This document shows positions 7,825 to 39,657 of a stretch of DNA of 64,000 bases, piece by piece. Every line of letters begins with the position of its first letter. The first letter of the stretch is position 1. The notes under the pieces are model-generated. The model was not told where the DNA came from, ran no database searches, and saw only the letters and a program-made list of their open reading frames with translations. The stretch is from an uncultured Candidatus Saccharibacteria bacterium (GTDB lineage Bacteria; Patescibacteriota; UBA1384; XYA2-FULL-43-10; 1-14-0-10-43-13): the NCBI GenBank assembly GCA_964364265.1, contig CAYILA010000003.1, positions 19,959 through 83,958 on the forward strand. Direction: 5' to 3'. The position numbers and the translations under genes are program-made.

Positions 7825-7846
7825 ATTATCTCCTCATAATACCTAC

Positions 7847-9013
7847 TTACTCGATTGTTACGGTTGACTCGGGAGGAACCACCGCTATCCAAAACTGTCC
7901 GCGATTGAATTTGATTTCGCTGCCGGCAGAATCGTAAAATATCTCGCGATCGGTTTTAGAGTTTTTCTTCCAGGTGGCTTCGATCATGGTTCCGTTGTAA
8001 ATAATCTTAGCGGCACCGCTTCCGATCGTGGTCATTTCATAACCGGCTTCATTAATTCGAGTGATAGTCGCTTTTCTCTTTACGGTCATTACAATTATGT
8101 TTGTCGGATTAATTTGTGTTTTGGTAATTTGATCGACATGGGCTTTGTCGGCCAATGAGCGTTTGTAGGAATTCTTTGTTCTATCATAATCAAATACTGC
8201 CTTGTATTGATTGGTTGAAAAATTGATCGTTATCTTTTGAGATTGGGGCAAGGCAGTCTTTTGGCTGTCATCTATATCTTCGTTGAATTTGTAAACCGTA
8301 TAATTGTTGGCGGTGGAAAATTTCTTGTCGGAAGCGGTTTTGCGGAGCTTAACGGTCGATGTGAACATTGTATGCTCACTAGCTAAATTCTTTGTTCTTT
8401 CTCTCCAGTATGGACTTGGATTACTAAATTGATCCAGATCCAATACTTTTTCTTTTTGAATTTGATCAAGTGCATCAATGTTGCCACCGACATGAGCTAA
8501 ATAAGCATCATAACCGCGAGCCCAATCGACGAAGTAAGTTCTAGCAGATCGGATAGGACCGACTTTTTCTGCTTCAAAAGTACCAAAAATAGCCATGAAT
8601 CGGGTGATGCCGCCTTCGGCGATCGCTTCATAGATTATACTGGCTTTATCTAAGCCGGCTTGAGGACGGGCATCGGGATGGTTTTCAACTACGACAGCAA
8701 GAGGATGTCTTGCCGAGGATTCCTTGGTAGTCATAATTCCATCGAGGGGAGCTTGATAGATTAAATCATTCGTCTCTTCTGTCGTATTTGTATTTTCTGT
8801 CGGTGTGATATTATCCTTTGTTAAAAATCTTATTCCCAGATAGAATAAACTGATAATAATTAAACCGAGTACGATTAAAAAAACAAGCCGCTTTTTGGGG
8901 TTTGCAAAAAAATCCTTAATTCGTTCTTTAAGTTTTTTTCTAGGACCTTTATTATTGACTGTCACATTTTCATTATTTGATTCAGTAGCGGTCGTTGTCT
9001 CTTCTTCAGGCAT
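7847..9013 (-). CDS. Membrane-anchored DUF3048 (YerB-like) domain protein
   Basis: N-terminal TM helix. The block LAVVVENHPDARPQAGLDKASIIYEAIAEGGITRFMAIF is characteristic of DUF3048. Confidence 0.55.
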   Translation of the reverse strand: MPEEETTTATESNNENVTVNNKGPRKKLKERIKDFFANPKKRLVFLIVLGLIIISLFYLGIRFLTKDNITPTENTNTTEETNDLIYQAPLDGIMTTKESSARHPLAVVVENHPDARPQAGLDKASIIYEAIAEGGITRFMAIFGTFEAEKVGPIRSARTYFVDWARGYDAYLAHVGGNIDALDQIQKEKVLDLDQFSNPSPYWRERTKNLASEHTMFTSTVKLRKTASDKKFSTANNYTVYKFNEDIDDSQKTALPQSQKITINFSTNQYKAVFDYDRTKNSYKRSLADKAHVDQITKTQINPTNIIVMTVKRKATITRINEAGYEMTTIGSGAAKIIYNGTMIEATWKKNSKTDREIFYDSAGSEIKFNRGQFWIAVVPPESTVTIE

Positions 9014-9037
9014 TTCTCCTCCTATATTCGTATTAAA

Positions 9038-9961
9038 TTAATGCCAATCGGCAATAATTCCTTTTTTACCTTCTAATTTTTGAATATAATCAAACGCGGA
9101 GAGCGCCGCCTTGGCGCCTTCTCCGGCTGATATAACGACTTGCTTATACGGGGTTTGGGTGAGATCGCCGGCGGCAAATATCCCGGGAACAGAAGTTTGT
9201 TGGCGGTTATCGACTATTATCTGATTGGTTTGATCGATATTGACCAAACCCTCTGCTAATTTTCGGTCTACGACATATCCGACTTCGACCATTACTCCGC
9301 CGACCGGAATTTCTTTTCCATCTTTAAGTATAACAGAAGTTACGGTATTGTCTCCCTTAATTTCTAAAACTTCAGTGTTAAATATTATCTCAATGTTCGG
9401 ATTTGATTTCAATCGGTCGATAAGATGTTGTTCGCCGCGAAACTCGGCAGTGCGGTGGATTATGTAAACACGCGAGGCGTATTTTGAGAGCAGTAAGGCC
9501 GCATCCAGAGCGGAGCTGCCGCCTCCGATGACAGCCACATCCCTTCCTTTGTAAAACGGAGCGTCGCATGTGGCGCAATAAGATATTCCATGTCCTTTCA
9601 GCTTCTCCTCGCCAGGCACGGCAAGCTCTCTTGGTTTTTTACCGAACGCAAGTATTATCGATTTTGTATCGTATGACGCGGAAGCGGTTGAAACAATAAA
9701 TGTTCCGTTTTTGGGTTCAATTTTTTTAACTTCGGCATTTTCAATTTTAGCGCCGAATTTAGTCGCTTGCTCCCGAAATTTAGAGATTAAATCCAATCCA
9801 GAGATATTATCGAAACCGGGATAATTTTCAATATCATAGGTTTTTATAACCTGACCGCCAATATCGGCGCTGATTATTAAAGTTGAGAGCGATCTTCTGG
9901 ATGTGTAGATGGCGGCGGTCAAACCAGCCGGTCCGGCGCCGATTATGATTACATCTAGCAT
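9038..9961 (-). CDS. trxB: Thioredoxin-disulfide reductase
   Basis: GAGPAG FAD motif, CATC redox-active disulfide, second GGG.SA NADPH motif. Confidence 0.9.
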
Positions 9962-12274: not shown

Positions 12275-12886
12275 TTAGCGGCCGAATTTCCGTATCATAC
12301 CGCGGACTTTGCCTTGGATTGTGACTCGGTTTCTGGCGAAGCGCATCGCCGACATTGACTTATTGGCCGGTTGAAGCCGGATGCCGCCCTTCTCCTCATA
12401 GAATCTTTTTAAGGTGGCATTTTGATTATCAACTAGGGCAACGACGATGTCGCCATTTTTGGCGGAAGAAGTTTGCTCAATAATGATGTAATCGCCGTCA
12501 AGTATGCCATCATCGATCATCGATTCGCCGCGGACTCGAAGGGCAAAGGTTTTTTTACCCATCATATCACGCGGGATATCGATCGTCTCCGATGTTCTTA
12601 TCGCTTCGATTGGCCGACCGGCGTCGATTACGCCCTCAAGCGGAATAGTAAATATACCCGCGCCATCGTCAAAACTAGGCGTTAATTGAATTGCCCGCGC
12701 CTCCATCGCCTCTTTAGTCAGATAACCCTTTTCCTGTAAGATATTGATATACTCGGCAATCGTGCCGGTTGAAGAAAACTCAAAGTAATGGGCTATTTCG
12801 CGGTAGCTGGGGGCGTAGCCGTTCTCATCGATAAAACCGCGTATGTAGTCCAATATCTCTTTTTGTCGCTTTGTCAGTGGATCCAT
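12275..12886 (-). CDS. lexA: LexA repressor (S24 peptidase)
   Basis: wHTH N-terminus (LTKRQKEILDYIRGFIDENGYAPS). S24 catalytic Ser/Lys (GESM...K). Start placed at the ATG at 12886; the ORF track extends upstream through a TTG. Confidence 0.85.
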   Translation of the reverse strand: MDPLTKRQKEILDYIRGFIDENGYAPSYREIAHYFEFSSTGTIAEYINILQEKGYLTKEAMEARAIQLTPSFDDGAGIFTIPLEGVIDAGRPIEAIRTSETIDIPRDMMGKKTFALRVRGESMIDDGILDGDYIIIEQTSSAKNGDIVVALVDNQNATLKRFYEEKGGIRLQPANKSMSAMRFARNRVTIQGKVRGMIRKFGR

Positions 12887-12896
12887 TTGGCTCCCT

Positions 12897-12933
12897 GTGT
12901 TCGTAATGTGTTCGGTATATCTATTATCGAACA
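12897..12933. promoter_or_regulatory. Candidate SOS/LexA operator: GTTC-N7-GTTC direct repeat overlapping a TGTTCG-N13-CGAACA palindrome
   Basis: Lies 11-47 nt upstream of the lexA ATG. Both motif classes are known LexA-box architectures in other phyla. Confidence 0.3.
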
Positions 12934-13032
12934 AAAACCAAACATCTGTCAATATCTATGTAGCCGTGTGGTTGTGGATAACTTGAAAATATGGTAGAAT
13001 TGGAAAAGGCAAGATGTGAAAATTTAATGTAG

Positions 13033-13082
13033 ACAAAAAAAATAAATATCGGAAGACGATTCGGGAAACTCGATCTTCCGAT
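13033..13082 (-). terminator. Rho-independent terminator downstream of rlmD
   Basis: On the minus strand, ATCGGAAGA...TCTTCCGAT 9-bp stem followed by a T8 run. Confidence 0.55.
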
Positions 13083-13128
13083 ATTAGACAATTCACATCT
13101 TGCAAAGTAATTATCCGGGACCGGCGAT

Positions 13129-14472
13129 TCAGCCGGTCCCATTTCTTTTTAATAGGCCAACACATTCAATGTGGTGGGTTTGCGGGAACATATCGATCGG
13201 CTGGACTTTTTTGAGTCCTATCCCCCTTTTTTCAAATAATACGATATCACGGGCGAATGTAGCTGGATTGCAGGAGACGTAGATTAGACGGTCAAAATCA
13301 ATTTTTGATATTGATTCTATGGTTTCCGGCCTTAATCCCGCCCGCGGCGGATCAATGACAATCACAGAATTGTTAAACCCGCCTACCGGCGAGGCAGGTT
13401 GTTTGATTGTTAAATTGTTGTTCAGATATTTTTCGGAATCCTCCCTTATGAATTCAACATTATGGATATGATTAATCATAGCATTGTCTTTCGCGTCGCG
13501 GACAGCTTCCGGAATAATTTCAACGCCGGTAACATTTTTTGCCATCGGCGATAAATAGATTGCGATCGAACCGGTGCCGCAGTAGAGGTCTAAGACCACA
13601 TCTTTTGGAGTGACGGCAGCGTATTCCTTGATTTTATTATAAAGCGTTTTGACACCGAGCGAATTTGTCTGGAAAAAAGATTCCGGCGAAATTTGAAACA
13701 GAAGCGAACCTATTTTTTCGTAAATAACCGGCGAACCGAATAAAAGATATCGCTTCATATTCGTAAGCGATTTGGCCGGCGCGACAGTATGATAAATTGA
13801 TTTAACGCCGGTAATTTCCTTTATGCAATTAGCAATACCCTCTTTATCTGGCAGGGTTTCGGTGCTGGTGATAATCTCAACCATAAAATCACCGGTTGCT
13901 TTGCCTTCGCGGATTTTTAACTGCCAAAATGATCCCTTATTTTCAACATTTTCATTAATATATTGTTTTAATTTGGGCAAAATCTCATTTGCGGTTACGG
14001 ATTGTAAGAAACATTTATCTACCTCAACCAATCCTTTTTTATAATCGAAGTTTTGGCGGGCGAAGCCGATATCGCCATCCGGTTTATCGATGAAGAAAAA
14101 CCGAATCGAATTGCGGTAAAAGAACGGGTGATTAGATCCGGGTATTATTTTCTCTGATTTTGTATCTATCCTTTGTTTTTTGAGAATTTCAGTAAATATC
14201 TTGCCTTTAAATCTTAGCTGAACGTCGTAAGGGATATTTTGATGCTCGCAGCCGCCGCATTTATCAAAAAATTGACAACGCGGTTTTATCCGAATCGGTG
14301 ATGGATTAATAATCTCCTTGATAATGCCGTTGGCATAATTCTTTTTATCTTTAGTAATATACGCCTCGACTTCATCACCGGGTACTGATTTCTTAACCAA
14401 AACGACCTTGCCGTCTTTTGAACAGCCCAATCCCCAACCTTCGTAAACTAGTTTTTCAATTTTGATTTTCAT
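13129..14472 (-). CDS. 23S rRNA (uracil-C5)-methyltransferase RlmD/RumA family (TRAM + Fe-S + SAM MTase)
   Basis: TRAM N-terminus. 4-Cys cluster C..FDKCGGCEHQ. SAM motif DLYCGTGSIA. Nucleophile VSCNPAT. Confidence 0.85.
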   Translation of the reverse strand: MKIKIEKLVYEGWGLGCSKDGKVVLVKKSVPGDEVEAYITKDKKNYANGIIKEIINPSPIRIKPRCQFFDKCGGCEHQNIPYDVQLRFKGKIFTEILKKQRIDTKSEKIIPGSNHPFFYRNSIRFFFIDKPDGDIGFARQNFDYKKGLVEVDKCFLQSVTANEILPKLKQYINENVENKGSFWQLKIREGKATGDFMVEIITSTETLPDKEGIANCIKEITGVKSIYHTVAPAKSLTNMKRYLLFGSPVIYEKIGSLLFQISPESFFQTNSLGVKTLYNKIKEYAAVTPKDVVLDLYCGTGSIAIYLSPMAKNVTGVEIIPEAVRDAKDNAMINHIHNVEFIREDSEKYLNNNLTIKQPASPVGGFNNSVIVIDPPRAGLRPETIESISKIDFDRLIYVSCNPATFARDIVLFEKRGIGLKKVQPIDMFPQTHHIECVGLLKRNGTG

Positions 14473-23922: not shown

Positions 23923-25203
23923 CTATTCCTCCCTTAACGCTTTAACTAGATTCAGACGCGAAGCTCTCCAAGCCGGAATTACGCCTGCTACGATTCCAAG
24001 AATGAAGGAGAAAGCAATCACTTCTACAATAAAATTGGTATCGAGTAAAAATATCTCCGCGCCCTTACTTTCTAATTTATTATTAACCAAAACTATCATA
24101 ATAATACCCATACCAAGCCCGACTATCCCTCCGATCAGTCCTATCATGCCGGCTTCCAGGGTATACTCCCTGGCCACCGCGCCATCGGTCGCTCCGATTG
24201 CCTTCTTAATGCCTATTTCACGAGTTCGTTCAGAGATCGACATAATCATGGTATTGATAATTGAAAAACTTCCGACTATAAGCGCCAGAAGAGCGGCGCC
24301 GAGTATCACGGCATTAAACATAACCATGGCTTTGTCAATCTGTTCGCCCATGGATTTAGGGGATAAAACCGTAACTTTGTCTCCAAATTGATCCTTAATT
24401 CGGTTTGAAACTGTCTCCGAATCATATCCGTCCTTCCATGATACCGAGGCGCCGGTCGAAAGGTCCTCCATCTTGAATGTCTTGGCTTGTTGAAGTTGGG
24501 TTCTGATGTCGGCCGGCAGTTTTGCCATTGCGGCATCGGATGTCTGGGATGCCTTGTCGGATTGTTCCTTCAGAGAATTTAAGAATGGATTTGACAAAAC
24601 CAGCATCTCCCGGGCCGGGTTAATCGACATCATGGCAAAGCTGTCAGGACCGGTCATCGTTTTGTTCATTACACCCAAAACAGTAAATTCCTTGCCGCGG
24701 ATAGTAATTTTATCGCCGGCGCGGACTTTTTTGTCGGTAGCGATACTGATACCGAGAACAACTTGATCGTCTCTATCTCCTCTTTGAAGCATTCTGCCCT
24801 CTTTCATCGACAGAGTGGTCCAGTTGCGGTTTTGGAATGTTGAATTTAGGTCGTATCCCTCGATTGTCGGCGGCACGCCCATATTGAGGCTGATATTATT
24901 CGGATCCGGTTCGGCATACGGCAATTCTACTCCAGCGCCAACCGCCTCGACGCCTTCAACCTCTGCGATTTGATTTAATGTATCAAGCGGTAGAGTGTTT
25001 GTCGCGCTTGGTCCAAAACCGGCGCTACCTTTTGGCATAATTGTAATTTGACCGGTTATATATCTTTTTCCGCCATCAATCATCTTGTTGAATTTTAAGG
25101 CCAAGGAACCCATTACTGTAAAAGCAAATATCCCGATGGCGATGCCCATTATGGTCAAAAAAGTTCTAAATTTCCGGCGCCACATATTTCTAAATATTTC
25201 CAT
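23923..25203 (-). CDS. ABC transporter permease, FtsX/MacB family
   Basis: N-terminal TM, large periplasmic domain, and a C-terminal 3-TM FtsX fold. Confidence 0.85.
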   Translation of the reverse strand: MEIFRNMWRRKFRTFLTIMGIAIGIFAFTVMGSLALKFNKMIDGGKRYITGQITIMPKGSAGFGPSATNTLPLDTLNQIAEVEGVEAVGAGVELPYAEPDPNNISLNMGVPPTIEGYDLNSTFQNRNWTTLSMKEGRMLQRGDRDDQVVLGISIATDKKVRAGDKITIRGKEFTVLGVMNKTMTGPDSFAMMSINPAREMLVLSNPFLNSLKEQSDKASQTSDAAMAKLPADIRTQLQQAKTFKMEDLSTGASVSWKDGYDSETVSNRIKDQFGDKVTVLSPKSMGEQIDKAMVMFNAVILGAALLALIVGSFSIINTMIMSISERTREIGIKKAIGATDGAVAREYTLEAGMIGLIGGIVGLGMGIIMIVLVNNKLESKGAEIFLLDTNFIVEVIAFSFILGIVAGVIPAWRASRLNLVKALREE

Positions 25204-25322
25204 AAGACCTTTCCTTAATTCACTAATTGATTATTGCACAAATATTAAATTATGCAAGTCAGAAAATGTATACGACAACAAAAGAGAGTGTTTTTCAACT
25301 CTCTTTTTAGGAGGAAGATGGA

Positions 25323-25541
25323 CTATTTTTTGCGTCGCCAGATTCCAATTCTGTGAAAACTTCTTCTGGCTAACTGGGCGTGATTTCCCAATGTTCCGAC
25401 CGCTTTTTTGGTCGCAAGTCTCAAACTCTTATAACTTTCCCGCGCACATTCCCCTTTATATATCATTTTCTGTCGGCTGTACGGCGGACTGTTGACAAGG
25501 ACATATACCGGTTCTAGCCTTTGAAATAAATTATTTTTCAT
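25323..25541 (-). CDS. Hypothetical small basic protein
   Basis: 72 aa ORF between the anti-sigma-like gene and the ABC permease. No recognisable domain. Weak call. Confidence 0.25.
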   Translation of the reverse strand: MKNNLFQRLEPVYVLVNSPPYSRQKMIYKGECARESYKSLRLATKKAVGTLGNHAQLARRSFHRIGIWRRKK

Positions 25542-25656
25542 ATAGCTCCTTTTTTGAAAAGGTGCCGGCCGGCTGTTTGTCTCATTGTTTATGTTTTGAG
25601 ACTTTTATTGCCTCTTCACTGACTAATACGAAAATTAAAATATTAAGATTTCATAA

Positions 25657-26373
25657 TTATTTACAACCGGGATGATACTCAATCAGGGATTGGCTTTTAT
25701 AAACTGATTTAATCTTTTCCGGAATAATTTCAGCGTTGTTTTCAACTTTTCCGTAAACCATAACCATTTGACAAGAGCTGGCATAATTTAAAATGTTTCG
25801 ATTGTCGGTGTCCAGCAGCCACAACTGACCATTATAATCTTTGATGTAAATATTGTTCGCTTGCATGACGACACGCCCGACAATAAAGCCCTTTTCCGGT
25901 TCGATCAGATTATTTATTATCTTCTCTTCATAACTATCGTATATGGGCAAAGAAGCCGAACTGAATTTATCCAATATTAAACCGTAACCTCGAATCTGCA
26001 TTAAAAACGCCATCAGGATAATTATTGAAAATGAGAAAATAATCAAGCCCCTTCTTTCGATTCGATAGCCGCATCTTGTTTTCCTGATTATCCAGAAGAA
26101 TAGGTAGGACGAACAGACGAATACGGCAAACCAGAAATAAGGGGCGACAATTGTTAGATATTCCATCAAAGTAATATGGCCGTAATCCAAAATCTCCCAA
26201 TCGGTCTCGAAAATAATGCTGACAATTATTCCAAATGACAAAACCATAAAAAATATCGATATCAACGATATCGACCAGATGGCTTCTTCCTTCAAAGAAA
26301 AACACCAAGCGGGTGTCGGTTTGATTGATTTTGTTTTGATTTCCTTAAAAATTTTCGAACTAAGGTCTTTCAT
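25657..26373 (-). CDS. Putative membrane anti-sigma factor (partner of ECF sigma)
   Basis: Overlaps the 3' end of the sigma gene by 14 nt. Multi-TM N-terminal half and a soluble C-terminal domain. Function inferred from gene context only. Confidence 0.45.
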   Translation of the reverse strand: MKDLSSKIFKEIKTKSIKPTPAWCFSLKEEAIWSISLISIFFMVLSFGIIVSIIFETDWEILDYGHITLMEYLTIVAPYFWFAVFVCSSYLFFWIIRKTRCGYRIERRGLIIFSFSIIILMAFLMQIRGYGLILDKFSSASLPIYDSYEEKIINNLIEPEKGFIVGRVVMQANNIYIKDYNGQLWLLDTDNRNILNYASSCQMVMVYGKVENNAEIIPEKIKSVYKSQSLIEYHPGCK

Positions 26374-26941
26374 TTTTTGGGATTTGTTTTTCTGCCGCTT
26401 TTTTGAACAATTGCTTAGCCCTGTTTATCAATGTGGCGACAGTACCTTTTGGTTTCTTTAAAATATATGAAATTTCGTTATAATTTTTTTCCTCTAAATA
26501 TCTCAGCACCAAAACACTTTTATACTTTGGCTTTAAGGTGTCGAGAACTTTTGCGACACTCATCTTGGTTATCTCTGCTTCTGCTTCCTTTTCGAGGTTT
26601 GTTTGATCCGGAAGCAACTCAAAAATATCGAAATCCTCTTCAAATGATACTACGCTCGGTCTGGCTTTTATTTTTCGGTAATAAGAAATGGCTTCGTTGT
26701 GCGAGATTCTGTAAATCCAACTTGAAAACTTCTGATTTTTGTCGAATGAATTTAAATTCTTATATGCTTTAATAAACACTTCTTGCAAAATATCCTCGAT
26801 GTCTTCGTCGGAGGAGACCAATAATCTTCTGATATACCGAGACAACTTTCCCTCATACCTTTTCATAAGGTAAATATAGTATGAGTCGTCTTTCAATACC
26901 AGATCGATTAGTTTTTCATCACTAATGTTATTTATATTCAT
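26360..26941 (-). CDS. RNA polymerase sigma-70 factor, ECF subfamily
   Basis: Region 2 (FIKAYKNLNSFDKNQKFSSWIYRISHNEAISYYRK) and region 4 HTH (NYNEISYILKKPKGTVATLINRAKQ). Confidence 0.85.
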   Translation of the reverse strand: MNINNISDEKLIDLVLKDDSYYIYLMKRYEGKLSRYIRRLLVSSDEDIEDILQEVFIKAYKNLNSFDKNQKFSSWIYRISHNEAISYYRKIKARPSVVSFEEDFDIFELLPDQTNLEKEAEAEITKMSVAKVLDTLKPKYKSVLVLRYLEEKNYNEISYILKKPKGTVATLINRAKQLFKKAAEKQIPKNERP

Positions 26942-27069
26942 AAATCGTCGATTATCAACTTCGCTTTTAAGATACCATCTTGGAAAAATTAATCAAAGCC
27001 GCCGCACATTATATATAGTGTTTATTTATTGCCGGATTTCCAGTATCATATTGCCAAGAAAGGATAAAT

Positions 27070-28155
27070 ATGAATTATGCTGTAATTATGGCAGGTGGTC
27101 AGGGCACAAGGTTGTGGCCTCTTTCAAGAAAGAACATGCCCAAACAACTCCACCGTTTATCAAGCGATAAATCATTAATTCAGGAAACTGTTGGAAGATT
27201 GTTGCCCATTTTCAAACCGGACCAGATTTTTATTTCCACCACACCTGAATATCAGGAAGAGATTAATAATCAGTTACCGGAAATCCCAGCAAAGAATTAT
27301 ATAATTGAACCGGTCGCCATGGGCAACGCCGCCGCCTGCGGTTTGGCGACAATGCTGATAGCCAAAAAAGATCCGGAAGCGAATATTATTTTCTATCCCG
27401 CAGATCAATCTATTAAAAATGAAGAAAGATTTCAACAAACCTTGCAATATGCATTTCTTCAACTAAACCAACATCCGGATCATATAATTACAATTGGTAT
27501 TGAGCCGAACCGACCGGATACCGGGTTAGGTTATATCCAGATGGCAGAAGAAATCAATTTTGATAAGGAAAAGAATTTACGAATAAATAAGGTTAAATGC
27601 TTTGTTGAAAAACCGGATCAGGAAACTGCAGTTTCATATATCTCCTCGAGTCAATATCTGTGGAACGCTGGCATTTTTATTTGGCAGACAGATAATTTTA
27701 TCAAATTAGTCCAAGATCATCTTCCGAATATTTATTCGGTATTAAAAACTATTACAGATTCATACAATAGCGACAGGTATGATGATGTATTAAATAGTGA
27801 GTATCCCAATATTGAAAACATAACAGTTGATTACGGAATAATGGAGAAGACTGACAAGATTCTTGTGGTTCCGGGTGATTTTGGTTGGAGCGATATCGGC
27901 AACTGGAGCACACTATTTGAAATATTATCTGAAATAGAAGGAACCAATGTTGTATCGCGCGGAGAACATATCAGCATTGAGGATGAAAACTCAATTGTAT
28001 TTTCCGGTGAAAAGTTAATCGCAACTATCGGGTTGAAAGATATCGTGGTGGTAGACACTCCGGACGCCACTCTAATTTGCGACCGGAACCGAGCCCATCA
28101 AGTGAAAGATTTACTCAATAAATTAAAAGAAGAAGGCAAGGAAAATTATTTATAA
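27070..28155 (+). CDS. manC: Mannose-1-phosphate guanylyltransferase
   Basis: IMAGGQGTRLWPLS nucleotidyltransferase motif and a left-handed beta-helix C-terminus. Confidence 0.85.
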   Translation: MNYAVIMAGGQGTRLWPLSRKNMPKQLHRLSSDKSLIQETVGRLLPIFKPDQIFISTTPEYQEEINNQLPEIPAKNYIIEPVAMGNAAACGLATMLIAKKDPEANIIFYPADQSIKNEERFQQTLQYAFLQLNQHPDHIITIGIEPNRPDTGLGYIQMAEEINFDKEKNLRINKVKCFVEKPDQETAVSYISSSQYLWNAGIFIWQTDNFIKLVQDHLPNIYSVLKTITDSYNSDRYDDVLNSEYPNIENITVDYGIMEKTDKILVVPGDFGWSDIGNWSTLFEILSEIEGTNVVSRGEHISIEDENSIVFSGEKLIATIGLKDIVVVDTPDATLICDRNRAHQVKDLLNKLKEEGKENYL

Positions 28156-28163
28156 AGGACTAT

Positions 28164-29525
28164 ATGGGAAAAGAAATACCATCGGAAATATTTAGATCAT
28201 ACGACATTAGAGGATTGTATCCTTTTCAGCTGGATGAAAAACTAGCCTACAGAATCGCTCAAGCTTACGTAAAATATGTTCAACCGGAAGGCAAAATCGT
28301 TGTCGGTTATGATGTTCGAACTTCCTCCCCAAAGCTTCAGGAGTCGGTCATATCGGGTTTAACCGACGCCGGTATCGATGTCGTTAATATCGGGATGGTT
28401 TCAACCGATATGTATTATTTCGCTGCTGGAAACTATAACTATGCTGGCGGAATTATGATTACCGCTTCTCATAATCCGGCTGAATATAACGGTCTTAAGA
28501 TGGTAAGAGAAAATGTTTACCCTCTGTTTGGTGAAGAAGGAATAAATCAAATTAGGGATATGATTTTAAATAACGAAGAGAAAATCAAATCCGAAAATAC
28601 CGGGATAACTGAAAATAAGGATGTATTAAACGACTTCTCTGATTTTGTACAAGGGTTGATTGATGTAGATTCCGTAAAGCCACTAAAAGTTGTAATGAAC
28701 GCGAATTTCGGTTACCAAGCTGTTGTTGCCGACCACATTATTAAAAGAGCAAAACTTCCCATCACTTTAGTGGGTTTAAATGACCAGCCGGATGGAACAT
28801 TTCCGAAAGGAAGGCCTGATCCATATGTCCCAGAAAACAGACCTGAATTTGTTGAGCTTGTTAAATCTGAAAATGCTGATTTTGGCGTTGCTTGGGATGC
28901 GGATGGTGACAGGGTCTTCTTTTGCACCGGCAACGGTGTATTTGTTGACGCATATTATATTAATTCCTTATTGATTAAAGAAATGTTGGCAAAAAGCGAC
29001 GACAAAAATATCATCTATGAACCCCGCTATACCTGGGCAATTATCGATGCAGCAAAAGAAGCCGGTGGAAATGCCATCGCAGAACGCGTCGGCCATTCCT
29101 ATATTAAAGCCAGGATGAAGAAAGAGAACGCAATATTTTGCGGCGAGTCATCGGGGCATACATATTTTAGAGATTTTTGGTACGCCGATGCCGGTATGAT
29201 TCCGTTTATACTAATGCTAGAAATTATTAGTAAATCCGGCAAATCGCTTGATGATCTGATAATGCCGATTATCAACAAATATCCGATTTCCGGAGAGATT
29301 AATTCTACAGTTGACGACAAGGATGCCGTCCTTTCAGAGATTAGAGAGACATATTCTGACGCCGAATTCAATACTCTTGATGGTTTGTCGCTCGAATATC
29401 CTGATTGGCGAGCCAATATCCGTGCTTCTAATACTGAACCTCTATTACGCTTGAATGTCGAGGCCAAGACTAAAGAACTGGTCGAGGATAAGACCCAAGA
29501 GCTCTTAAATATTATCCGTAGTTAA
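28164..29525 (+). CDS. Phosphomannomutase/phosphoglucomutase
   Basis: Active-site TASHNP, metal loop DADGDR, sugar-binding GESSGH. Confidence 0.9.
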   Translation: MGKEIPSEIFRSYDIRGLYPFQLDEKLAYRIAQAYVKYVQPEGKIVVGYDVRTSSPKLQESVISGLTDAGIDVVNIGMVSTDMYYFAAGNYNYAGGIMITASHNPAEYNGLKMVRENVYPLFGEEGINQIRDMILNNEEKIKSENTGITENKDVLNDFSDFVQGLIDVDSVKPLKVVMNANFGYQAVVADHIIKRAKLPITLVGLNDQPDGTFPKGRPDPYVPENRPEFVELVKSENADFGVAWDADGDRVFFCTGNGVFVDAYYINSLLIKEMLAKSDDKNIIYEPRYTWAIIDAAKEAGGNAIAERVGHSYIKARMKKENAIFCGESSGHTYFRDFWYADAGMIPFILMLEIISKSGKSLDDLIMPIINKYPISGEINSTVDDKDAVLSEIRETYSDAEFNTLDGLSLEYPDWRANIRASNTEPLLRLNVEAKTKELVEDKTQELLNIIRS

Positions 29526-29649
29526 GCTGTCCCTCCCCCATTATCTCCTTCTCCTAATCTCAATTAATTAAAAGTACTGATAAGGTATTATAATTAATCA
29601 CCTTTTCTGGACGGCCGTCCAGATTTAGGGATATTAGTTAATATATGTG

Positions 29650-29692
29650 GAATAGAAAAGGCGGAGGATCCCGTGTGGGGAAACTCCGCCTT
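29650..29692 (-). terminator. Terminator hairpin downstream of the LysM-like ORF
   Basis: AAGGCGGAG...CTCCGCCTT 9-bp stem followed by a T-rich run on the minus strand. Confidence 0.5.
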
Positions 29693-29705
29693 CTAAACTT
29701 TGCCG

Positions 29706-30002
29706 CTAGTTTTTTGCTAGTGGCAATTTCACCCGGTCACCCGGGTGAAGCTTCCCCGGGTCAAGCCCGGGGTTTGTCTCTCTGAATACTTCCCGAAGTG
29801 TCCAGAGAGACACTCGATTGTCCTGAAGCAGGCCGGCCCGCTCCAAGAGTCGGTCCTCGCCGTCGCTCGCTTGGACGACGAGGACCACGCGTGGCCGAGC
29901 TAAAAGCTCGGCCTTTACACGAGCCTGGCGGTGTACTGGTGACACCGTCCAGACTGACCAGAGCGCGGCCAGAATGGCCGCGAGGATGAGAAGTTTTTTC
30001 AT
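29706..30002 (-). CDS. Small secreted/membrane-anchored LysM-like protein encoded in a GC-rich islet
   Basis: Start at MKKLLILAAILAALW (signal/TM), preceded by AGGAAGGGAAG SD. C-terminal SLWTLREVFRETNPGLDPGKLHPGDRVKLP fits the LysM consensus (.TLW.IA......NP.L.DP..I.PGQ.L.IP). The ORF track's longer 134-aa version has no upstream SD. Confidence 0.5.
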   Translation of the reverse strand: MKKLLILAAILAALWSVWTVSPVHRQARVKAELLARPRVVLVVQASDGEDRLLERAGLLQDNRVSLWTLREVFRETNPGLDPGKLHPGDRVKLPLAKN

Positions 30003-30493
30003 AACTTCCCTTCCTAGGCGGCCTAGCCGCCGGTCGTGAGCGTTGACCTTTCGGGTCAGCTCGCGCCTGATATTATAAGTTAATAGCAAGCGTGAACTGA
30101 CTCTAAACAACTGGCATTATAGCATAATACTTCGCTTATGTCAATATTAGATTTGCCTATCGGGAAATGCTCGATTCACCAGACTCTTACCTAACAATTA
30201 CGATATCATCTATACCACTTGACTAGGATTACCCCGTCAAAATCTTCTATACAGGCACAATATTGTGTCAAAATTCACGCTGCAGCGTATGTTATGACAC
30301 AAATATACCCAAACTCTGGCGTGAATTCGGGTATATAGTTATTCTTCGAGTGATGCGATGCTGAAATCGGGAAGTATTAATTATTTCTCGATTCCGCCCC
30401 TGGCTCCCCTCGAACAATATAATATTAGGCCTGATTTACTGATTAGCTCCAATCCTTGGTTGGTCGGCCTCGGGCCGAGATTAGCTATCTCTG

Positions 30494-31423
30494 TTATTTT
30501 AAATAAATAATCTCGGTCTCAATCTCTACGCCAAATTTATCTTTGACTGTTTTCTTGGCATACTCGATTAGTTGCAGAACTTCGCTTGATTTGGCGTCTC
30601 CAAGATTAATCAAGAAATTGGGATGCTTTTCGGCAATTTGGGCATTGCCGATTTTTTTGCCTTTCAGTCCGGCTTCACTTAAAAGCAAAGCGACCGGAAC
30701 AACCGAAAAGGGATCGTTTTTGATAAACTCTTTATACTTTTCAGCCAGCTCCGGTGTAACTTTAGAGACCGGTACATTTTTAAAGGTGCTTCCGGCGCTA
30801 GGGTAATTTAAGGGTTGATTGTCAAGGCGGTATCGGATATTTGCTTTAACCTTGGCTTCAATATCGTATTTCTGACCTTTTTTGAAAAAGAAGCCGCAAA
30901 ATAGTATGCATTCGTCTAATTTCTCATTCTTAAAAATACTTCCCCGGTAGGTGAAGGCGCACTCCTCTTTGCTCCTTATTTTTGTTTCCAATGTTTCTAA
31001 ATCCAAACTCTCGACATTTCCTATATTATCCTTTGTCTCTCCGCCAAACGACCCGGCATTACCTCTTACGGCGCCGCCAAGAGATCCCGGCAGGCCGCCG
31101 GCCCATTCAAAGCCAGAGTATTCTTTTTCAATGCAATAATTAATCGCTTTCGAAAACAGCAATCCCGCTCCATATTTTACATTGGGAAAATTATCCGTGA
31201 TCTCGTCGATATCATTATGAAGTATCAGCCCGTCATAACCGCCATCATCTATTAAGAGGTTTGTAACACCGCCGGTTATAAACATTTTGGCAATCCCCTT
31301 TTCCTTTGCTTCTTTCAAACCAGCAATCAATTCATCTTTGTTTTTGAACTTTAGATAATACTTAGCATTGCCGCCGATTTTGTAATAACTTAAATTTTTA
31401 AGAGAAATATTTTCTTCAATCAT
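30494..31423 (-). CDS. murB: UDP-N-acetylenolpyruvoylglucosamine reductase
   Basis: FAD-binding N-terminal YKIGG..ITGGVTNLL and the MurB C-terminal domain. Confidence 0.9.
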   Translation of the reverse strand: MIEENISLKNLSYYKIGGNAKYYLKFKNKDELIAGLKEAKEKGIAKMFITGGVTNLLIDDGGYDGLILHNDIDEITDNFPNVKYGAGLLFSKAINYCIEKEYSGFEWAGGLPGSLGGAVRGNAGSFGGETKDNIGNVESLDLETLETKIRSKEECAFTYRGSIFKNEKLDECILFCGFFFKKGQKYDIEAKVKANIRYRLDNQPLNYPSAGSTFKNVPVSKVTPELAEKYKEFIKNDPFSVVPVALLLSEAGLKGKKIGNAQIAEKHPNFLINLGDAKSSEVLQLIEYAKKTVKDKFGVEIETEIIYLK

Positions 31424-32247
31424 TTTGCTCCTTTTAGTTTTTCGATAAGAATGAGAAACATAAATTTTGGAATCGCCATTTGTCTAGCAATTCTTCTTGG
31501 CTCAATGATTAATCGAAATAACCACTCAAAGCCCAATTTTTGCAACCAGACCGGGGCCCGTGGTTTGATGCCGGCAACAAAATCAAACGAACCGCCCACG
31601 CCCATTCCGATGCGGCAACCGGTATGTTTTAGGTTGGCCGCCAACCACTTTTCTTGTTTTGGTGCGCCGTATGCTACAAATACAATATCGGCTTTGCTCT
31701 TTTTGATCGCTTCGACTATTTCCTCGGTATCCTTAATCGAACCGGAATGGACACCGACGACCCGAAGGTCCGGCAGATCGGTTTGAAGTTTGAGCGAGCA
31801 CCTTTCGGCCACCGTCGGTTCTCCTCCGACAAAAAATATCTCTAAACGATTTTTTGAGGCGTATTCTGATAGGTCCCAAATAAAATCAGAACCGGAGACT
31901 CTGGCTTTTATTGGTCTATTCCCTATCCTGGTGTAAACAGGCATGAATATTATTGAGAGAAACCAAACAGCCAAAAAATAGAAAAATGAAATATACTTAT
32001 CGAAAGCCGGTTTTGTATTTAAGTATTTGGCCGCCCAAATTAATCCGACTCCATCAGTAATATTTAAGGAAGAAGAATGATTTAAAATTTTGAATAATTC
32101 CCTGTCTTTTTGGGCTCTTGTTATTATTTCCGGATTTGGAGTGCAAATAATATGAGTTCCCGACATTGAAAAATCATGAAATATTTTTTCGTATTCCTTT
32201 TTCTCTATAGCATCTAATCTGATTTTTAAGATATTCACTCTATTCAT
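31420..32247 (-). CDS. WecB/TagA/CpsF-family glycosyltransferase
   Basis: IVFVAYGAPKQEKW and the GVGGSFD pattern of the TagA/WecG family. An internal hydrophobic segment is present. Confidence 0.8.
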   Translation of the reverse strand: MNRVNILKIRLDAIEKKEYEKIFHDFSMSGTHIICTPNPEIITRAQKDRELFKILNHSSSLNITDGVGLIWAAKYLNTKPAFDKYISFFYFLAVWFLSIIFMPVYTRIGNRPIKARVSGSDFIWDLSEYASKNRLEIFFVGGEPTVAERCSLKLQTDLPDLRVVGVHSGSIKDTEEIVEAIKKSKADIVFVAYGAPKQEKWLAANLKHTGCRIGMGVGGSFDFVAGIKPRAPVWLQKLGFEWLFRLIIEPRRIARQMAIPKFMFLILIEKLKGAK

Positions 32248-33334
32248 TTTCCAAACATTTTTTTATTTCGGAAATAAATACTTCTTCGGAAAACTTCTCG
32301 GCTTGTTTTCGACAATCTTTCGGTAAGATGTTCTCTCTAATCTTTTCCAATTGCTCTATCGCTTCATTTAAACTATCCGGATTATCATTTTCAAAGAATA
32401 CTCCGGTTTTCCCCTCGACAACCGTTTCGGTGACACCACCCTTTTTATATGCCACTACCGGAACTCCCGATGCCATTGCTTCAATGGGAGTCAGACCGAA
32501 ATCCTCTTCTCCGGGGAATATCAAGGCGATCGAATTTCTCATTTTTTCCACGACAACCCTGTCTGGTTGCCAGTCAAGAAATTCGATATTATTTTTCGCT
32601 AACTTTTTTAATCTTTTTTGATCCGATCCGATGCCTATAATTTTTAATTCCTTGTTATTTATGTTAAATGCTTTTATTGCCAAATCAATCTTTTTATACG
32701 GCTCTAACCTTGAAACCACCAGATAATAATCCCCGGTCTTGCCATCAGAAAGTGGAATATTTTTAATATCAGTTGGGGGATAAATCACTTTTGCATCTTT
32801 CCGGTAATACTTTTTAATCCGTTCGGCCGCCGTATTCGATTGAGCAAGCCAAAGATCGACTCTATCCGCCGAGACACGGTCCCAAATCCTGACATTTTTC
32901 AAAATATTTCTAATATATATCCCCTTAATTCCTTGGCCGATGTTGTGCTCATCCAAATATTCGTGGTACCAATCCCAAGCATAACGCATCGGCGAATAAC
33001 AGTAACAGATATGCTTCGTTTTCGGTTTGGTGATGACGCCGTGGGCAAATGAATTTGAGAAAGATAAGACGGTATCATACTTTGATAAATCAAATTCTTC
33101 AATCGCTTGCGGAAACCGCGGTAATAATAAGCGTGTCTTGCTTCTAATATTTCGGGGCAGTTTTCCGAGGGAGGATTGTGTGACATTATATTTTGAAAAT
33201 ACTTCTTTAGTTCCTTTTTCGTCATACAATAAAGTATAAAGATCAACATTTGGAAAATGTTTTAAGAATATTTGTAGCACTTTTTCAGCACCACCTAATT
33301 TAGTTAAAAAATCGTGAACCACCGCAATTTTCAT
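32240..33334 (-). CDS. Glycosyltransferase family 4 (GT-B)
   Basis: EEDFGLTPIEAMASGVPVVA E-X7-E motif. Confidence 0.85.
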   Translation of the reverse strand: MKIAVVHDFLTKLGGAEKVLQIFLKHFPNVDLYTLLYDEKGTKEVFSKYNVTQSSLGKLPRNIRSKTRLLLPRFPQAIEEFDLSKYDTVLSFSNSFAHGVITKPKTKHICYCYSPMRYAWDWYHEYLDEHNIGQGIKGIYIRNILKNVRIWDRVSADRVDLWLAQSNTAAERIKKYYRKDAKVIYPPTDIKNIPLSDGKTGDYYLVVSRLEPYKKIDLAIKAFNINNKELKIIGIGSDQKRLKKLAKNNIEFLDWQPDRVVVEKMRNSIALIFPGEEDFGLTPIEAMASGVPVVAYKKGGVTETVVEGKTGVFFENDNPDSLNEAIEQLEKIRENILPKDCRKQAEKFSEEVFISEIKKCLENE

Positions 33335-34392
33335 TCAGTACCTTCTTTAATAAAATCAATCAGTTGCTTTGCCGAATTCTGCCAATCAAAATCTTTTAAT
33401 CGTTGAAATCCATCCTTAATCAGTTTTTCTCTTTTAGCTTTATCGGATACAATTTCTTCCATTGCCTTTGCTATCTCACTCGGATCATCCGGATCGATTA
33501 AAATGGCAGAGTTTCCGGCGATTTCTTTCATTGCAGAACAATCAGAAGTTATTACCGGTAAACCAGTTGAGAAAGCTTCTAAAATTGGCATACCGAAGCC
33601 TTCATACAAACTCGGATAGACCAAGGCCGTAGCGTTATTAAATAATTGCTTGACCTTCTGATGCGGTTGATAACCCAATAATTTGATATCATTTTTGTAT
33701 TTAGAATTATCTATTTCTTTTAAAATCTCCCGGAAGCCGAAACCGGCCTTGCCTATCAATATTAATTTTCGCTTGTCGGGATTGCCGCATTTATATTCTT
33801 CAAAAGCTTTAACAATGTTAACAATATTTTTTCGTTTTTCAATTCTGCCGATAAATACAAAATCACCATAAAGATTGGATTTTCCACCGATATTTTCGTA
33901 ACCGCTATAGATTACTTTTATTTTATCCTGATTGATTTTGTATAATTTTATTAAATCTTTTTTAGTTGAATCAGAAACGGTTACTATCTTTGCTCCAAAA
34001 TTAATGTCTTTTTTAATAGCTCTGTTTTGTATGATCAGTTCGGTTTTGGTATATGCCTTCTTAAAGTACTTGAAAGCTAAGTCATGAATGTAGACTATCG
34101 AATTTTTTGGAGCAAAGCCGGGAATTTCGTTGCCAAAAACTATCAGAGCTTCCGGCTTGTCTTTGAACAATGCTAACGGCAAGCGAAATTTATGCCAAAA
34201 TTTTTTAAAAGGGATTATGATATTTTTAAAATTATCGCCTTGCAGTTCTTTGGCCAGCGGCACGCTTGAATAGAGAAAATACTCATTTTCCTTATCGATT
34301 TTTTTCAAACACAAAATCGTCTGATAAGCGACATTTTCTACACCGGTTTTATTTTCCAGCGAAGCGCTGGAAGCGTCAATGGCAATTTTCAT
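33331..34392 (-). CDS. Glycosyltransferase family 4 (GT-B)
   Basis: YEGFGMPILEAFSTGLPVITSD E-X7-E motif. Start set at the internal MKIAIDAS, which abuts the mreB stop. Confidence 0.8.
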   Translation of the reverse strand: MKIAIDASSASLENKTGVENVAYQTILCLKKIDKENEYFLYSSVPLAKELQGDNFKNIIIPFKKFWHKFRLPLALFKDKPEALIVFGNEIPGFAPKNSIVYIHDLAFKYFKKAYTKTELIIQNRAIKKDINFGAKIVTVSDSTKKDLIKLYKINQDKIKVIYSGYENIGGKSNLYGDFVFIGRIEKRKNIVNIVKAFEEYKCGNPDKRKLILIGKAGFGFREILKEIDNSKYKNDIKLLGYQPHQKVKQLFNNATALVYPSLYEGFGMPILEAFSTGLPVITSDCSAMKEIAGNSAILIDPDDPSEIAKAMEEIVSDKAKREKLIKDGFQRLKDFDWQNSAKQLIDFIKEGTE

Positions 34393-38478: not shown

Positions 38479-39657
38479 TTACCGTGATAACTGTTTGCCG
38501 CAGAGAACCTGGGCTAGCTCGGCAAGCGACCTGCCACGGAGATACCGATCGCTGATCTCCATTGCTGCTGTTGAAGCAGTGATGAAATCAGCTTCTTCTT
38601 GCGAGATTTCTGCGATACAAGCGAGTGCGGAATAGATATCTGTTTCATCTGTGGTGCTCTCGAGAAGTATCGCGAAGTCATTCCGATCTCGCGTAATCCG
38701 ACAGAGCTCCATGAAAAGCGAATCAACGCTCTCTGGATTTGACAGAAGGGCTTCTCGAGCAACTGTGATATCGCTCTGGTCAGCGCTGATTTTGGCGAGT
38801 GCGAGAAGGTTAAAGTACCTTCTGAAATCCGCCGACCATCCCTTTTCAATTTCTTGAACTGGGATAGCCGTTATTTCAGCTCTTGCTCTTGCGATATCCC
38901 GAGGGTCACGAGTAGCTTTGGCGATCTTGAGCCAATGTTCCCACGGCTCGCAATCGAATCTCTCTGCGATAGCGCGAGCTGCCAGGATGTCTTCATTTGC
39001 CTGGCTAAACTCGTAAACAGCGAGGTATTCCGAGAGTTGGTAGCAGGGAACCTTTTCCTTGGCTGCCATTTTCCGCGCTTCATCAATCTTGCCCATCGCC
39101 GCCGTGGCTCGTACGCGTATGACGCGCACCACACCTTGTTTGTATGATTGCCGAACAATCCGATCAGCCAGTTTCCTGACCATGTCGGGTTGTGATGTTT
39201 CGGCTATCGTTTCCAAAACGACGAACATGGCGATCTGGCGCTGCACCTTTTGCTCGTCCTCGTCTACATAATCGTCTTCGTCGCCAGTGGTCTTGGCAGT
39301 AAGCGAGGCAAGTTTCAAAGCGTATCCGAGATCTTTCTTTGCCCACCCCCTTATGATGCTCTGTCGTGCGAACACAGCCTCATCGTGGCCTTCAGGACTG
39401 ATCTTCTCGGCAATTTCCTCCGCAACCGCCAGATCACCCGCCAAGGCAAGCGCCTCGACGATGTCGGCTCGAACCTCATCAGCTTCGCTGGGACTCGGGT
39501 CGGAGCTTCTCGTGAGAACAATCCGGCAACCCAGAAAATCCCCGATAGTGTTCTTCCCCAAATGTTCAGCCCGCTGATGGACGATGTCGCCAACTTGGAG
39601 CATCGCCATCTCGATAAGCTCCTCAAACAACCTCTTCTTCCAAAGCAGTTTGTCCAT
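38479..39657 (-). CDS. Hypothetical alpha-helical repeat protein (HEAT/TPR-like) in a GC-elevated islet
   Basis: 392 aa, Ala/Glu/Arg-rich helical repeats, no catalytic motif. Local GC is clearly above flanks. Both strands are riddled with long overlapping ORFs, the signature of high-GC DNA. Confidence 0.45.
   Translation of the reverse strand: MDKLLWKKRLFEELIEMAMLQVGDIVHQRAEHLGKNTIGDFLGCRIVLTRSSDPSPSEADEVRADIVEALALAGDLAVAEEIAEKISPEGHDEAVFARQSIIRGWAKKDLGYALKLASLTAKTTGDEDDYVDEDEQKVQRQIAMFVVLETIAETSQPDMVRKLADRIVRQSYKQGVVRVIRVRATAAMGKIDEARKMAAKEKVPCYQLSEYLAVYEFSQANEDILAARAIAERFDCEPWEHWLKIAKATRDPRDIARARAEITAIPVQEIEKGWSADFRRYFNLLALAKISADQSDITVAREALLSNPESVDSLFMELCRITRDRNDFAILLESTTDETDIYSALACIAEISQEEADFITASTAAMEISDRYLRGRSLAELAQVLCGKQLSR

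Follow-up and report, generated by a model that had tools for sequence, protein, structure and literature searches.

A GC-rich islet between pmm and murB of a groundwater Patescibacteria genome: a selected hairpin-chain RNA that probably encodes a small LysM-like membrane protein

Between the convergent genes pmm (phosphomannomutase, positions 28164-29525, plus strand) and murB (MurB, 30494-31423, minus strand), both assigned with Pfam, a groundwater member of the Patescibacteria carries a GC-rich islet of about 0.5 kb. The 64,000 nucleotides of DNA analysed here, which we call the window, are part of contig JBBUIC010000002.1 of assembly GCA_038055525.1, a metagenome-assembled genome of the Patescibacteria, or candidate phyla radiation (CPR), from the Hainich groundwater well H51. 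In total, ~64 kb of the host genome and ~13 kb from each relative were examined. We favour, with a probability of about 0.55, the reading that the islet, which is located in the 968-nt gap between pmm and murB, is a real small gene that forms its own transcription unit and encodes a membrane LysM protein of YneA-like architecture, and that its mRNA is a selected chain of hairpins that buries the ribosome-binding site. The RNA is selected to fold from its leader to its terminator, over and above its coding role.

When the minus-strand RNA of positions 29650-30110 was folded, its minimum free energy (MFE) was -255.8 kcal/mol, compared with -163.4 ± 5.3 kcal/mol in dinucleotide-preserving shuffles (z = -17.6). 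The MFE fold fills the islet with ~14 back-to-back, near-perfect stem-loops that have stems of 6-19 bp and loops of 3-7 nt. The plus (antisense) strand of the islet gave a folding z-score of -12.2, and the sense RNA is the more stable of the two by 14-15 kcal/mol. Its G-U pairs, three of which lie in the hairpin at 29848-29821, correspond to A-C mismatches in the antisense RNA. After correction for GC content, a scan of the 64 kb returned the islet as the only extended hyper-structured stretch, and ordinary host genes, including the other GC-rich open reading frame (ORF) of the window, had folding z-scores of ~0 to -2. Permutation of synonymous codons, with the protein and the codon usage held fixed, destroyed the fold: the native coding sequence reached -163.4 kcal/mol versus -111.4 ± 5.4 kcal/mol for the permuted ones (z = -9.6), and it is for this reason that we attribute the fold to selection on structure. 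The same permutation yielded z-scores of only +0.4 to -0.8 for the controls pmm, murB, manC and the other GC-rich ORF.

Nine of the stem-loops listed from the MFE fold lie within 29700-29982 of the minus strand, in the coding region, with stems of 7-15 bp and loops of 3-7 nt. In the direction of transcription, the first five span 29982-29964, 29955-29922, 29913-29893, 29887-29851 and 29848-29821, and the remaining four 29811-29776, 29772-29754, 29749-29728 and 29726-29700. The initial annotation had taken perfect GC palindromes as marks of the islet edge. These palindromes, TCTGGACGGCCGTCCAGA at 29606-29623 and AAGGCGGAG...CTCCGCCTT at 29658-29692, are indeed present, but they do not mark an edge, because they are three of the ~14 consecutive stem-loops that fill the whole islet. 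The first of them, a perfect palindrome of 18 bp, is flanked by the stop codon of pmm on one side and by the terminator of the islet on the other, and it probably serves as terminator of pmm or blocks transcription in both directions. The motif CCGTCCAGA occurs three times in the 64 kb, against 0.24 copies expected, and all copies are in the islet.

Several known kinds of palindromic DNA were considered and set aside. A repetitive extragenic palindrome or interspersed mosaic element (REP/BIME) or a miniature inverted-repeat transposable element (MITE) is not indicated, as the hairpins all differ and the 9-mer that some share, CCGTCCAGA, is confined to the islet within the 64 kb. The islet of the window has no excess of six-base palindromes or restriction sites (P = 0.16), and in the islet of a relative, L004, described below, they are depleted. 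For an integron cassette, inspection by eye (no formal scan) found no GTTRRRY/RYYYAAC core sites of an attC element, and there is no integrase.

The islet is a single autonomous transcription unit of ~460 nt on the minus strand, with a predicted start. Its sigma-70 promoter (30116-30144) comprises a -35 box TTGACA (30144-30139), a 17-nt spacer and an extended -10 box TGcTATAAT (30124-30116), and thus matches the consensus at 12 of 12 positions and has the TG extension in addition. It is the sole promoter-like site in 29400-30600 and is placed in AT-rich DNA just beyond the GC-rich core. A consensus scan of the same interval, the only type of scan applied, found no plus-strand promoter-like site that could serve an antitoxin RNA. 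The 5' leader of ~106 nt (30003-30108, its start predicted from the -10 box) contains a 19-bp hairpin (30101-30055), which competes with an alternative hairpin at ~30063-30034, and a 6-bp hairpin GGCGGC-UAG-GCCGCC (30017-30031). Following these, the Shine-Dalgarno (SD) sequence AGGAAGGGAAG (30015-30005), which resembles the SD motifs of neighbouring host genes, pairs with codons 3-8 in a hairpin at 29983-30015. This SD hairpin has a predicted dG of -12.7 kcal/mol and a pairing probability of ~0.9 across the SD, and it exposes the AUG (30002-30000) in its 7-nt loop. The unit closes with an intrinsic terminator (29649-29693, minus strand), a 14-bp hairpin with a dG of -24.3 kcal/mol followed by the U-tract UUUUCUAUU. 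ARAGORN found no tRNA or tmRNA in the islet.

Upstream of the islet promoter, positions 30111-30493 form an AT-rich spacer of 383 nt (GC 0.415) that extends to the murB stop codon and holds no credible ORF. It contains two adjoining imperfect palindromes, at 30263-30302 (20-nt arms) and 30303-30336 (14-nt arms), and, near the murB end, a duplicated AGCTAATC flanking a GC hairpin.

The coding sequence (29706-30002, minus strand) opens with MKKLLILAAILAALW and consists of 98 codons and a TAG stop; at NCBI it is annotated as hypothetical protein AAB881_00665. It is the best-supported gene of the islet and stands where the initial annotation had placed an ORF of 99 amino acids, its product being 98 residues long. 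The GC content at codon positions 1, 2 and 3 is 0.72, 0.41 and 0.65, in phase with the ORF. The N-terminus reads MKK and continues with 18 hydrophobic residues, and the predicted layout of the protein is a hydrophobic helix at residues ~3-20, a second helix and a LysM-like β-α-α-β domain at ~38-94. AlphaFold2 models, which were built without alignments, have the order helix-helix-β-α-α-β in the best cases, reaching a predicted local distance difference test (pLDDT) value of 74.8 when the whole protein is modelled and of 87.2 when residues 27-98 are modelled alone. A Foldseek search of the PDB returned LysM domains for nearly all of the top ~50 matches, at probabilities of up to 0.97, TM-scores of up to 0.67 (single-domain targets) and root mean square deviations of 2.4-2.8 Å. 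With phmmer, matches among 1.84 billion representatives were confined to multi-LysM proteins, whose repeats inflate the E-values and of which residues ~70-96 alone align. The proposal of a secreted, LysM-like product is therefore supported by the signal- or anchor-like start and by the C-terminal module seen with AlphaFold2, Foldseek and phmmer. We consider that the ORF is probably translated into a highly diverged LysM protein anchored by a transmembrane (TM) segment.

Beyond these multi-LysM matches, the homology search that had been suggested for the product found no close relative. Neither a PDB sequence search nor k-mer protein searches yielded a relative, the former giving no match and the latter only self-matches, also when the protein of relative L003 was used as query. 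Searches of 5.8 billion protein clusters, 1.8 billion representatives, IMG/VR and the JGI metagenomes, the last scanned with a protein pattern and one DNA pattern, gave no relative of the islet at the protein or DNA level.

The host genome likewise has no close relative in public data, the nearest pmm proteins being at most 65% identical. Three related Patescibacteria loci, L002, L003 and L004, have kept the convergent pmm-murB synteny (pmm 60-65% identical), and the gap carries different cargo in all three. In L002 (gap 7350-9074) it holds a 332-aa ORF, HD-like by eye, and a 218-aa ORF; in L003 (7443-8201) a 252-aa ORF; and in L004 (7349-8089) a 246-aa ORF that resembles short-chain dehydrogenases by eye. 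The gap is thus a local hotspot of gene turnover, at which the islet is lineage-specific. Presence or absence in sister genomes, which had been proposed as a check, has the outcome that the gap is variable and that the islet is missing from this site in L002, L003 and L004.

A scan of the relatives' loci for excess structure, however, revealed two analogous islets a few kilobases from pmm. The one in L003 (1430-1960, or to 1991 with wider bounds; minus strand) has a GC content of 0.58 in a genome of 0.46 and a folding z-score of -10.4. Its promoter reads TTGACT-17-TGcTATAAT, its leader has 142 nt and a terminator is present; the gene encodes a 103-aa TM and LysM protein, which scores 36 bits against the Pfam LysM cut-off of 20.9. 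In NCBIfam this protein matches YneA best, along its full length (E = 1.4e-11; 44.2 bits, under the cut-off of 60). The islet in L004 (3775-4230, or to 4264; minus strand; GC 0.61 versus 0.51 for the genome; z = -9.9) follows the islet of the window in promoter design (TTGACT-17-TGtTATATT) and leader length (105 nt); it also has terminators and the SD GGGGAGG, and its product is a 95-aa membrane protein with hydrophobic segments and no family match. Both show selection for structure at synonymous sites, with z-scores of -4.8 in L003 and -6.8 in L004. In ~170 kb of sequence taken from non-CPR genomes and from further CPR lineages, no extended hyper-structured islets were found, and pmm-homologue loci from other CPR lineages, which served as negative controls, have neither the pmm-murB synteny nor islets.

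As the initial annotation had remarked, GC content rises abruptly between pmm and murB: the islet core (29656-30065) reaches 59.8%, compared with 41.5% for the whole 64 kb (standard deviation 0.045 for 400-nt windows). The islet is the top 400-nt window of the 64 kb, ~4 standard deviations over the mean, and it peaks at 0.61-0.62 in 200-nt windows and at up to 0.72 in 50-nt windows. An islet that is GC-rich is therefore real, and the strings quoted from it are all present in the sequence, but the earlier figure of more than 60% GC over 0.5 kb was slightly overstated, since the span 29600-30110 has 55.2%. The GC content at third codon positions (GC3) is 0.65 in the islet ORF versus ~0.38 in neighbouring genes. 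At the 511-nt scale, a stretch near 39091 is equally GC-rich (0.556). It belongs to a 392-aa ORF at 38479-39657 (minus strand), with no Pfam match and a GC content of 0.51-0.556, which rivals the islet at the 0.5-kb scale, has no surplus RNA structure (z = -0.2 to -0.4) and is a better candidate than the islet for compositionally foreign DNA.

Recent horizontal acquisition from a high-GC donor had been offered as one explanation of the islet. Under this explanation, a promoterless or moron-like cassette from a high-GC bacterium or phage would have entered the variable pmm-murB gap and retained the GC content of its donor. The differences in GC (0.60 versus 0.415) and GC3 are in line with such an event, and so are the orphan status of the gene, the compactness of a unit that has its own terminator and the different cargo of the gap in each of the three relatives. 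However, none of the collections searched yielded a donor or a relative, and the islet has no tRNA target and no flanking direct repeats. The reported absence of integrase and transposase genes was confirmed, in that no such domains occur across the surrounding 20 kb. This region is a cell-envelope cluster that includes a murA-like gene, mreB, two GT4 glycosyltransferase genes, wecG/tagA, murB, manC, pmm and a sortase gene. Furthermore, the promoter is of host type and lies in AT-rich DNA, and the composition of a donor cannot account for a folding z-score of -17.6 or a synonymous-site z-score of -9.6; the GC-rich gene at 38479-39657 is free of excess structure. The relatives L003 and L004, with host GC contents of 0.46 and 0.51, have similarly built islets at 0.58-0.61. 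Recent acquisition is thus left with no positive support, and we regard it as unlikely. The high GC content is best read as going with a selected hairpin design that is common to this gene class in the lineage, both because the same GC content recurs in hosts of different GC content and because base composition alone cannot yield the folding excess.

A chimeric assembly join, or another artefact at 29.6-30.1 kb, had been the second explanation on offer, and the abrupt change in composition would fit it. Three contigs do break inside the islet, all of them of low coverage (4-6x): a Logan contig that runs from pmm into the islet and ends at 29875, and two contigs from replicate R3, of which the one on the pmm side ends at 29923 and the one on the murB side at 29896. 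The latter two overlap at 29896-29923. The pmm-side contigs enter the islet by 220-270 nt and the murB-side contig by ~170 nt, so that each boundary between AT-rich and GC-rich DNA is crossed by independent contigs, which excludes the join. In addition, a 64,330-bp ENA contig from replicate R2 is identical base for base to the window over 24164-33525, and the locus recurs on four or more contigs of 50-200 kb. Given also that the unit is coherent from promoter to terminator, and that the breaks coincide with a polymorphism between two alleles, we consider an artefact exceedingly improbable.

This polymorphism concerns the tract 29865-29923 (minus strand), in which a second allele from R3 differs at 9 of 59 positions (15%) after 2.9 kb of perfect identity. 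The two alleles, represented by contigs L024 and L026, coexist in sample Hain_H51_01um_R3, where the murB-side contig has the allele of the window; the second allele is known from one contig end at 5x coverage. None of its eight scorable changes falls on codon position 2 (P = 0.03). Three changes are synonymous, and three codons change conservatively (S to G, L to M and A to S). The local folding energy of the variant is -47.2 kcal/mol, versus -48.2 kcal/mol for the allele of the window, and random sets of eight changes gave -31.4 ± 5.4 kcal/mol, with 0.2% of them folding as well (P = 0.002). Within the limits of a single contig of low coverage, the second allele suggests purifying selection on both frame and fold. 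A diversity-generating retroelement was dismissed as the cause of the polymorphic tract, as the changes are not adenine-specific and there is no reverse transcriptase nearby.

A number of observations weigh against the favoured reading, a translated LysM gene with a selected mRNA. Only one of five AlphaFold2 models was confident in each run, the Foldseek E-values are 0.066-1 for what is a tiny domain, and the hhalign alignment spans just the last 23 residues. The Pfam LysM family PF01476 has no match at E ≤ 1, LysM2_NFP scores 17.6 bits versus a cut-off of 36, and NCBIfam has no match at E ≤ 1 for the protein of the window. BLASTP detects no similarity between this protein and that of L003, and the three islets cannot be aligned as DNA or as protein, so that a common origin is not established by alignment. 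An ORF of such length arises in ~6% of dinucleotide shuffles of the region. The gene caller of ENA left the pmm-murB gap of an identical contig (L022) without a gene, whereas NCBI calls the ORF, and this omission makes the orphan status of the gene less secure than protein databases suggest. Since palindromes of the CCCGGG type encode the motif NPGLDPG..HPGD, the resemblance to LysM could be partly a by-product of the hairpins. Finally, the link between GC content and structure is not demonstrable from the composition of paired and unpaired bases: the difference between them (0.665 versus 0.396) was dropped as proof that the GC sits in stems, as shuffled sequences show the same contrast (0.68 versus 0.44).

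Some of these points would suit a structured non-coding RNA, or a dual-function RNA in which the RNA part dominates, with the ORF as an accident of GC-rich, stop-poor palindromes. The chance probability of the ORF length, the uncalled gene, the want of protein homologues and the palindromic coding of the LysM-like motif can all be counted in its favour. The same is true of the extreme hairpin excess on the transcribed strand, with its additional G-U pairs and its advantage over the antisense strand, and of the variant allele, which keeps the structure. Rfam 15, on the other hand, has no match for the islet at the gathering score, and even at E ≤ 10 the best scores are 23-25 bits versus cut-offs of 42-52. 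The GC content of the codon positions is in phase with the ORF, the N-terminus is a textbook case of charged residues followed by hydrophobic ones, the AlphaFold2 model has a LysM fold, and the changes of the variant spare codon position 2 and replace amino acids conservatively. Moreover, the analogous and equally structured islet of L003 encodes an unquestionable LysM protein. On balance, a functional product that is wholly or mainly RNA appears quite improbable to us, and a protein gene with a selected mRNA remains our preferred reading.

One further structured element of the window, at 13005-13150, is an observation in its own right. It is a strongly structured stretch of 146 nt (z = -7.9) without an ORF, located between lexA (12275-12952, minus strand) and the 3' end of a gene for a 447-aa methyltransferase-like protein. 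A 12-bp outer stem surrounds a 17-bp hairpin, and beyond it lies a GC-rich terminator hairpin whose T-run is on the plus strand; the window-wide Rfam scan gave no match at the gathering score.

If the islet is a protein gene of the kind proposed, its product would be a 98-aa bitopic protein, whose N-terminal hydrophobic helix could act as a membrane anchor or an uncleaved signal. A short helix would come next, and then one LysM-type domain of highly diverged sequence, directed towards the cell wall. The protein would most likely bind peptidoglycan at the membrane surface, because its architecture is that of YneA-type small regulators of division and of the cell wall, and an envelope-directed role comparable to that of YneA would fit the gene neighbourhood. 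On the RNA side, a near-perfect constitutive promoter together with a folded RNA may produce an abundant, long-lived mRNA that is translationally throttled or gated, as is the case for known mRNAs of toxic small membrane proteins, and we infer that the gating would be exerted by the SD hairpin, which buries the ribosome-binding site.

More tentatively, a clade of Patescibacteria from groundwater could carry an undescribed class of constitutively transcribed, GC-rich, ~0.5-kb mRNAs, selected as hairpin chains over their whole length, for fast-evolving small membrane proteins, YneA-like TM and LysM proteins or related ones, whose translation is gated by the RNA or whose RNA has a second function; this generalization is a possibility on which we would not yet rely. 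If it holds, the class would represent a new mode of control for envelope and division regulators or toxins in ultra-small bacteria. Hosts without many classical regulators may in this way restrain, after transcription, a membrane protein of the cell wall or division that is potentially toxic. The literature searched contained no account of small LysM genes packed with hairpins in CPR. GC spikes in AT-rich, streamlined genomes are usually read as foreign DNA, as an RNA gene or as a misassembly. The spike described here would instead be a protein gene whose synonymous sites are under strong selection for RNA structure, in a design that recurs in relatives, and calls of horizontal transfer made from composition in CPR genomes would then need a check of structure. 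Small, fast-evolving envelope proteins of episymbionts may also be undercounted, given that one gene caller skipped the islet gene on an identical contig.

Among known systems, the closest in architecture is YneA, an SOS-induced division suppressor (NF010723). In Bacillus subtilis, YneA is a protein of about 100 aa in which one N-terminal TM segment is joined to one extracellular LysM domain, and it blocks septal peptidoglycan synthesis via both of these parts (PMC13396833). The islet protein shares the arrangement, with 98 aa, a hydrophobic helix at residues 3-18/20 and a LysM-like domain at 38-94, and its gene likewise lies among cell-wall and division-related genes. It has no profile match at E ≤ 1, whereas the best match of the L003 analogue is YneA itself. 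For yneA, we know of no mRNA described as packed with hairpins, although no search was aimed at this point. The islet gene is not beside lexA, which is 17 kb away, and no LexA/Cheo-box-like site occurs near the islet promoter (30100-30200), a weak negative as the LexA box of this lineage may differ. Just upstream of the likely lexA start, a GAAC-N7-GAAC sequence at 12899-12913 could be a LexA box like those of alphaproteobacteria; the 64 kb contain one other copy (position 456), which is no more than expected by chance.

With the LysM family (PF01476/CBM50), the islet protein has in common the predicted β-α-α-β fold and a C-terminal motif NPGLDPxxLxPGDxVxLP. It differs in that it falls below every curated sequence threshold, and in that its first strand and helix carry VVLVVQASDGEDRLLERA instead of the usual xYxVxxGDTLxxIA.

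The mRNAs of type I toxins such as hok, tisB and aapA1 combine a strong promoter, a long structured leader, a ribosome-binding site locked in a hairpin and a small membrane protein in a stable, compact message. The islet would share these traits, among them the predicted sequestration of its ribosome-binding site in the SD hairpin (-12.7 kcal/mol, pairing probability ~0.9). Type I toxins are, however, hydrophobic peptides of fewer than 60 aa, whereas the islet protein has 98 aa and an extracytoplasmic domain. The hairpins of the islet span the whole coding region and not the ends alone, and the consensus scan of 29400-30600 revealed no promoter from which an antitoxin RNA, antisense or adjacent, could be transcribed. 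Small genomic islets and the morons of phages have the same compact promoter-gene-terminator layout, atypical composition and position in a variable spot between conserved genes, but the islet has neither a phage or mobile context nor a donor, and its composition is tied to a selected RNA structure.

A last point of comparison is RNAIII of Staphylococcus aureus, a dual-function RNA of ~0.5 kb with ~14 stem-loops and a small ORF. The islet RNA is similar in size, in its ~14 stem-loops and in carrying an ORF. It has no sequence or Rfam relationship to RNAIII and no known target-pairing loops, and its ORF makes up two-thirds of the RNA. When set beside all of these systems, the islet may best be described as an orphan small gene for a TM and LysM protein with an exceptional, selected mRNA structure, which could define a clade-specific class.

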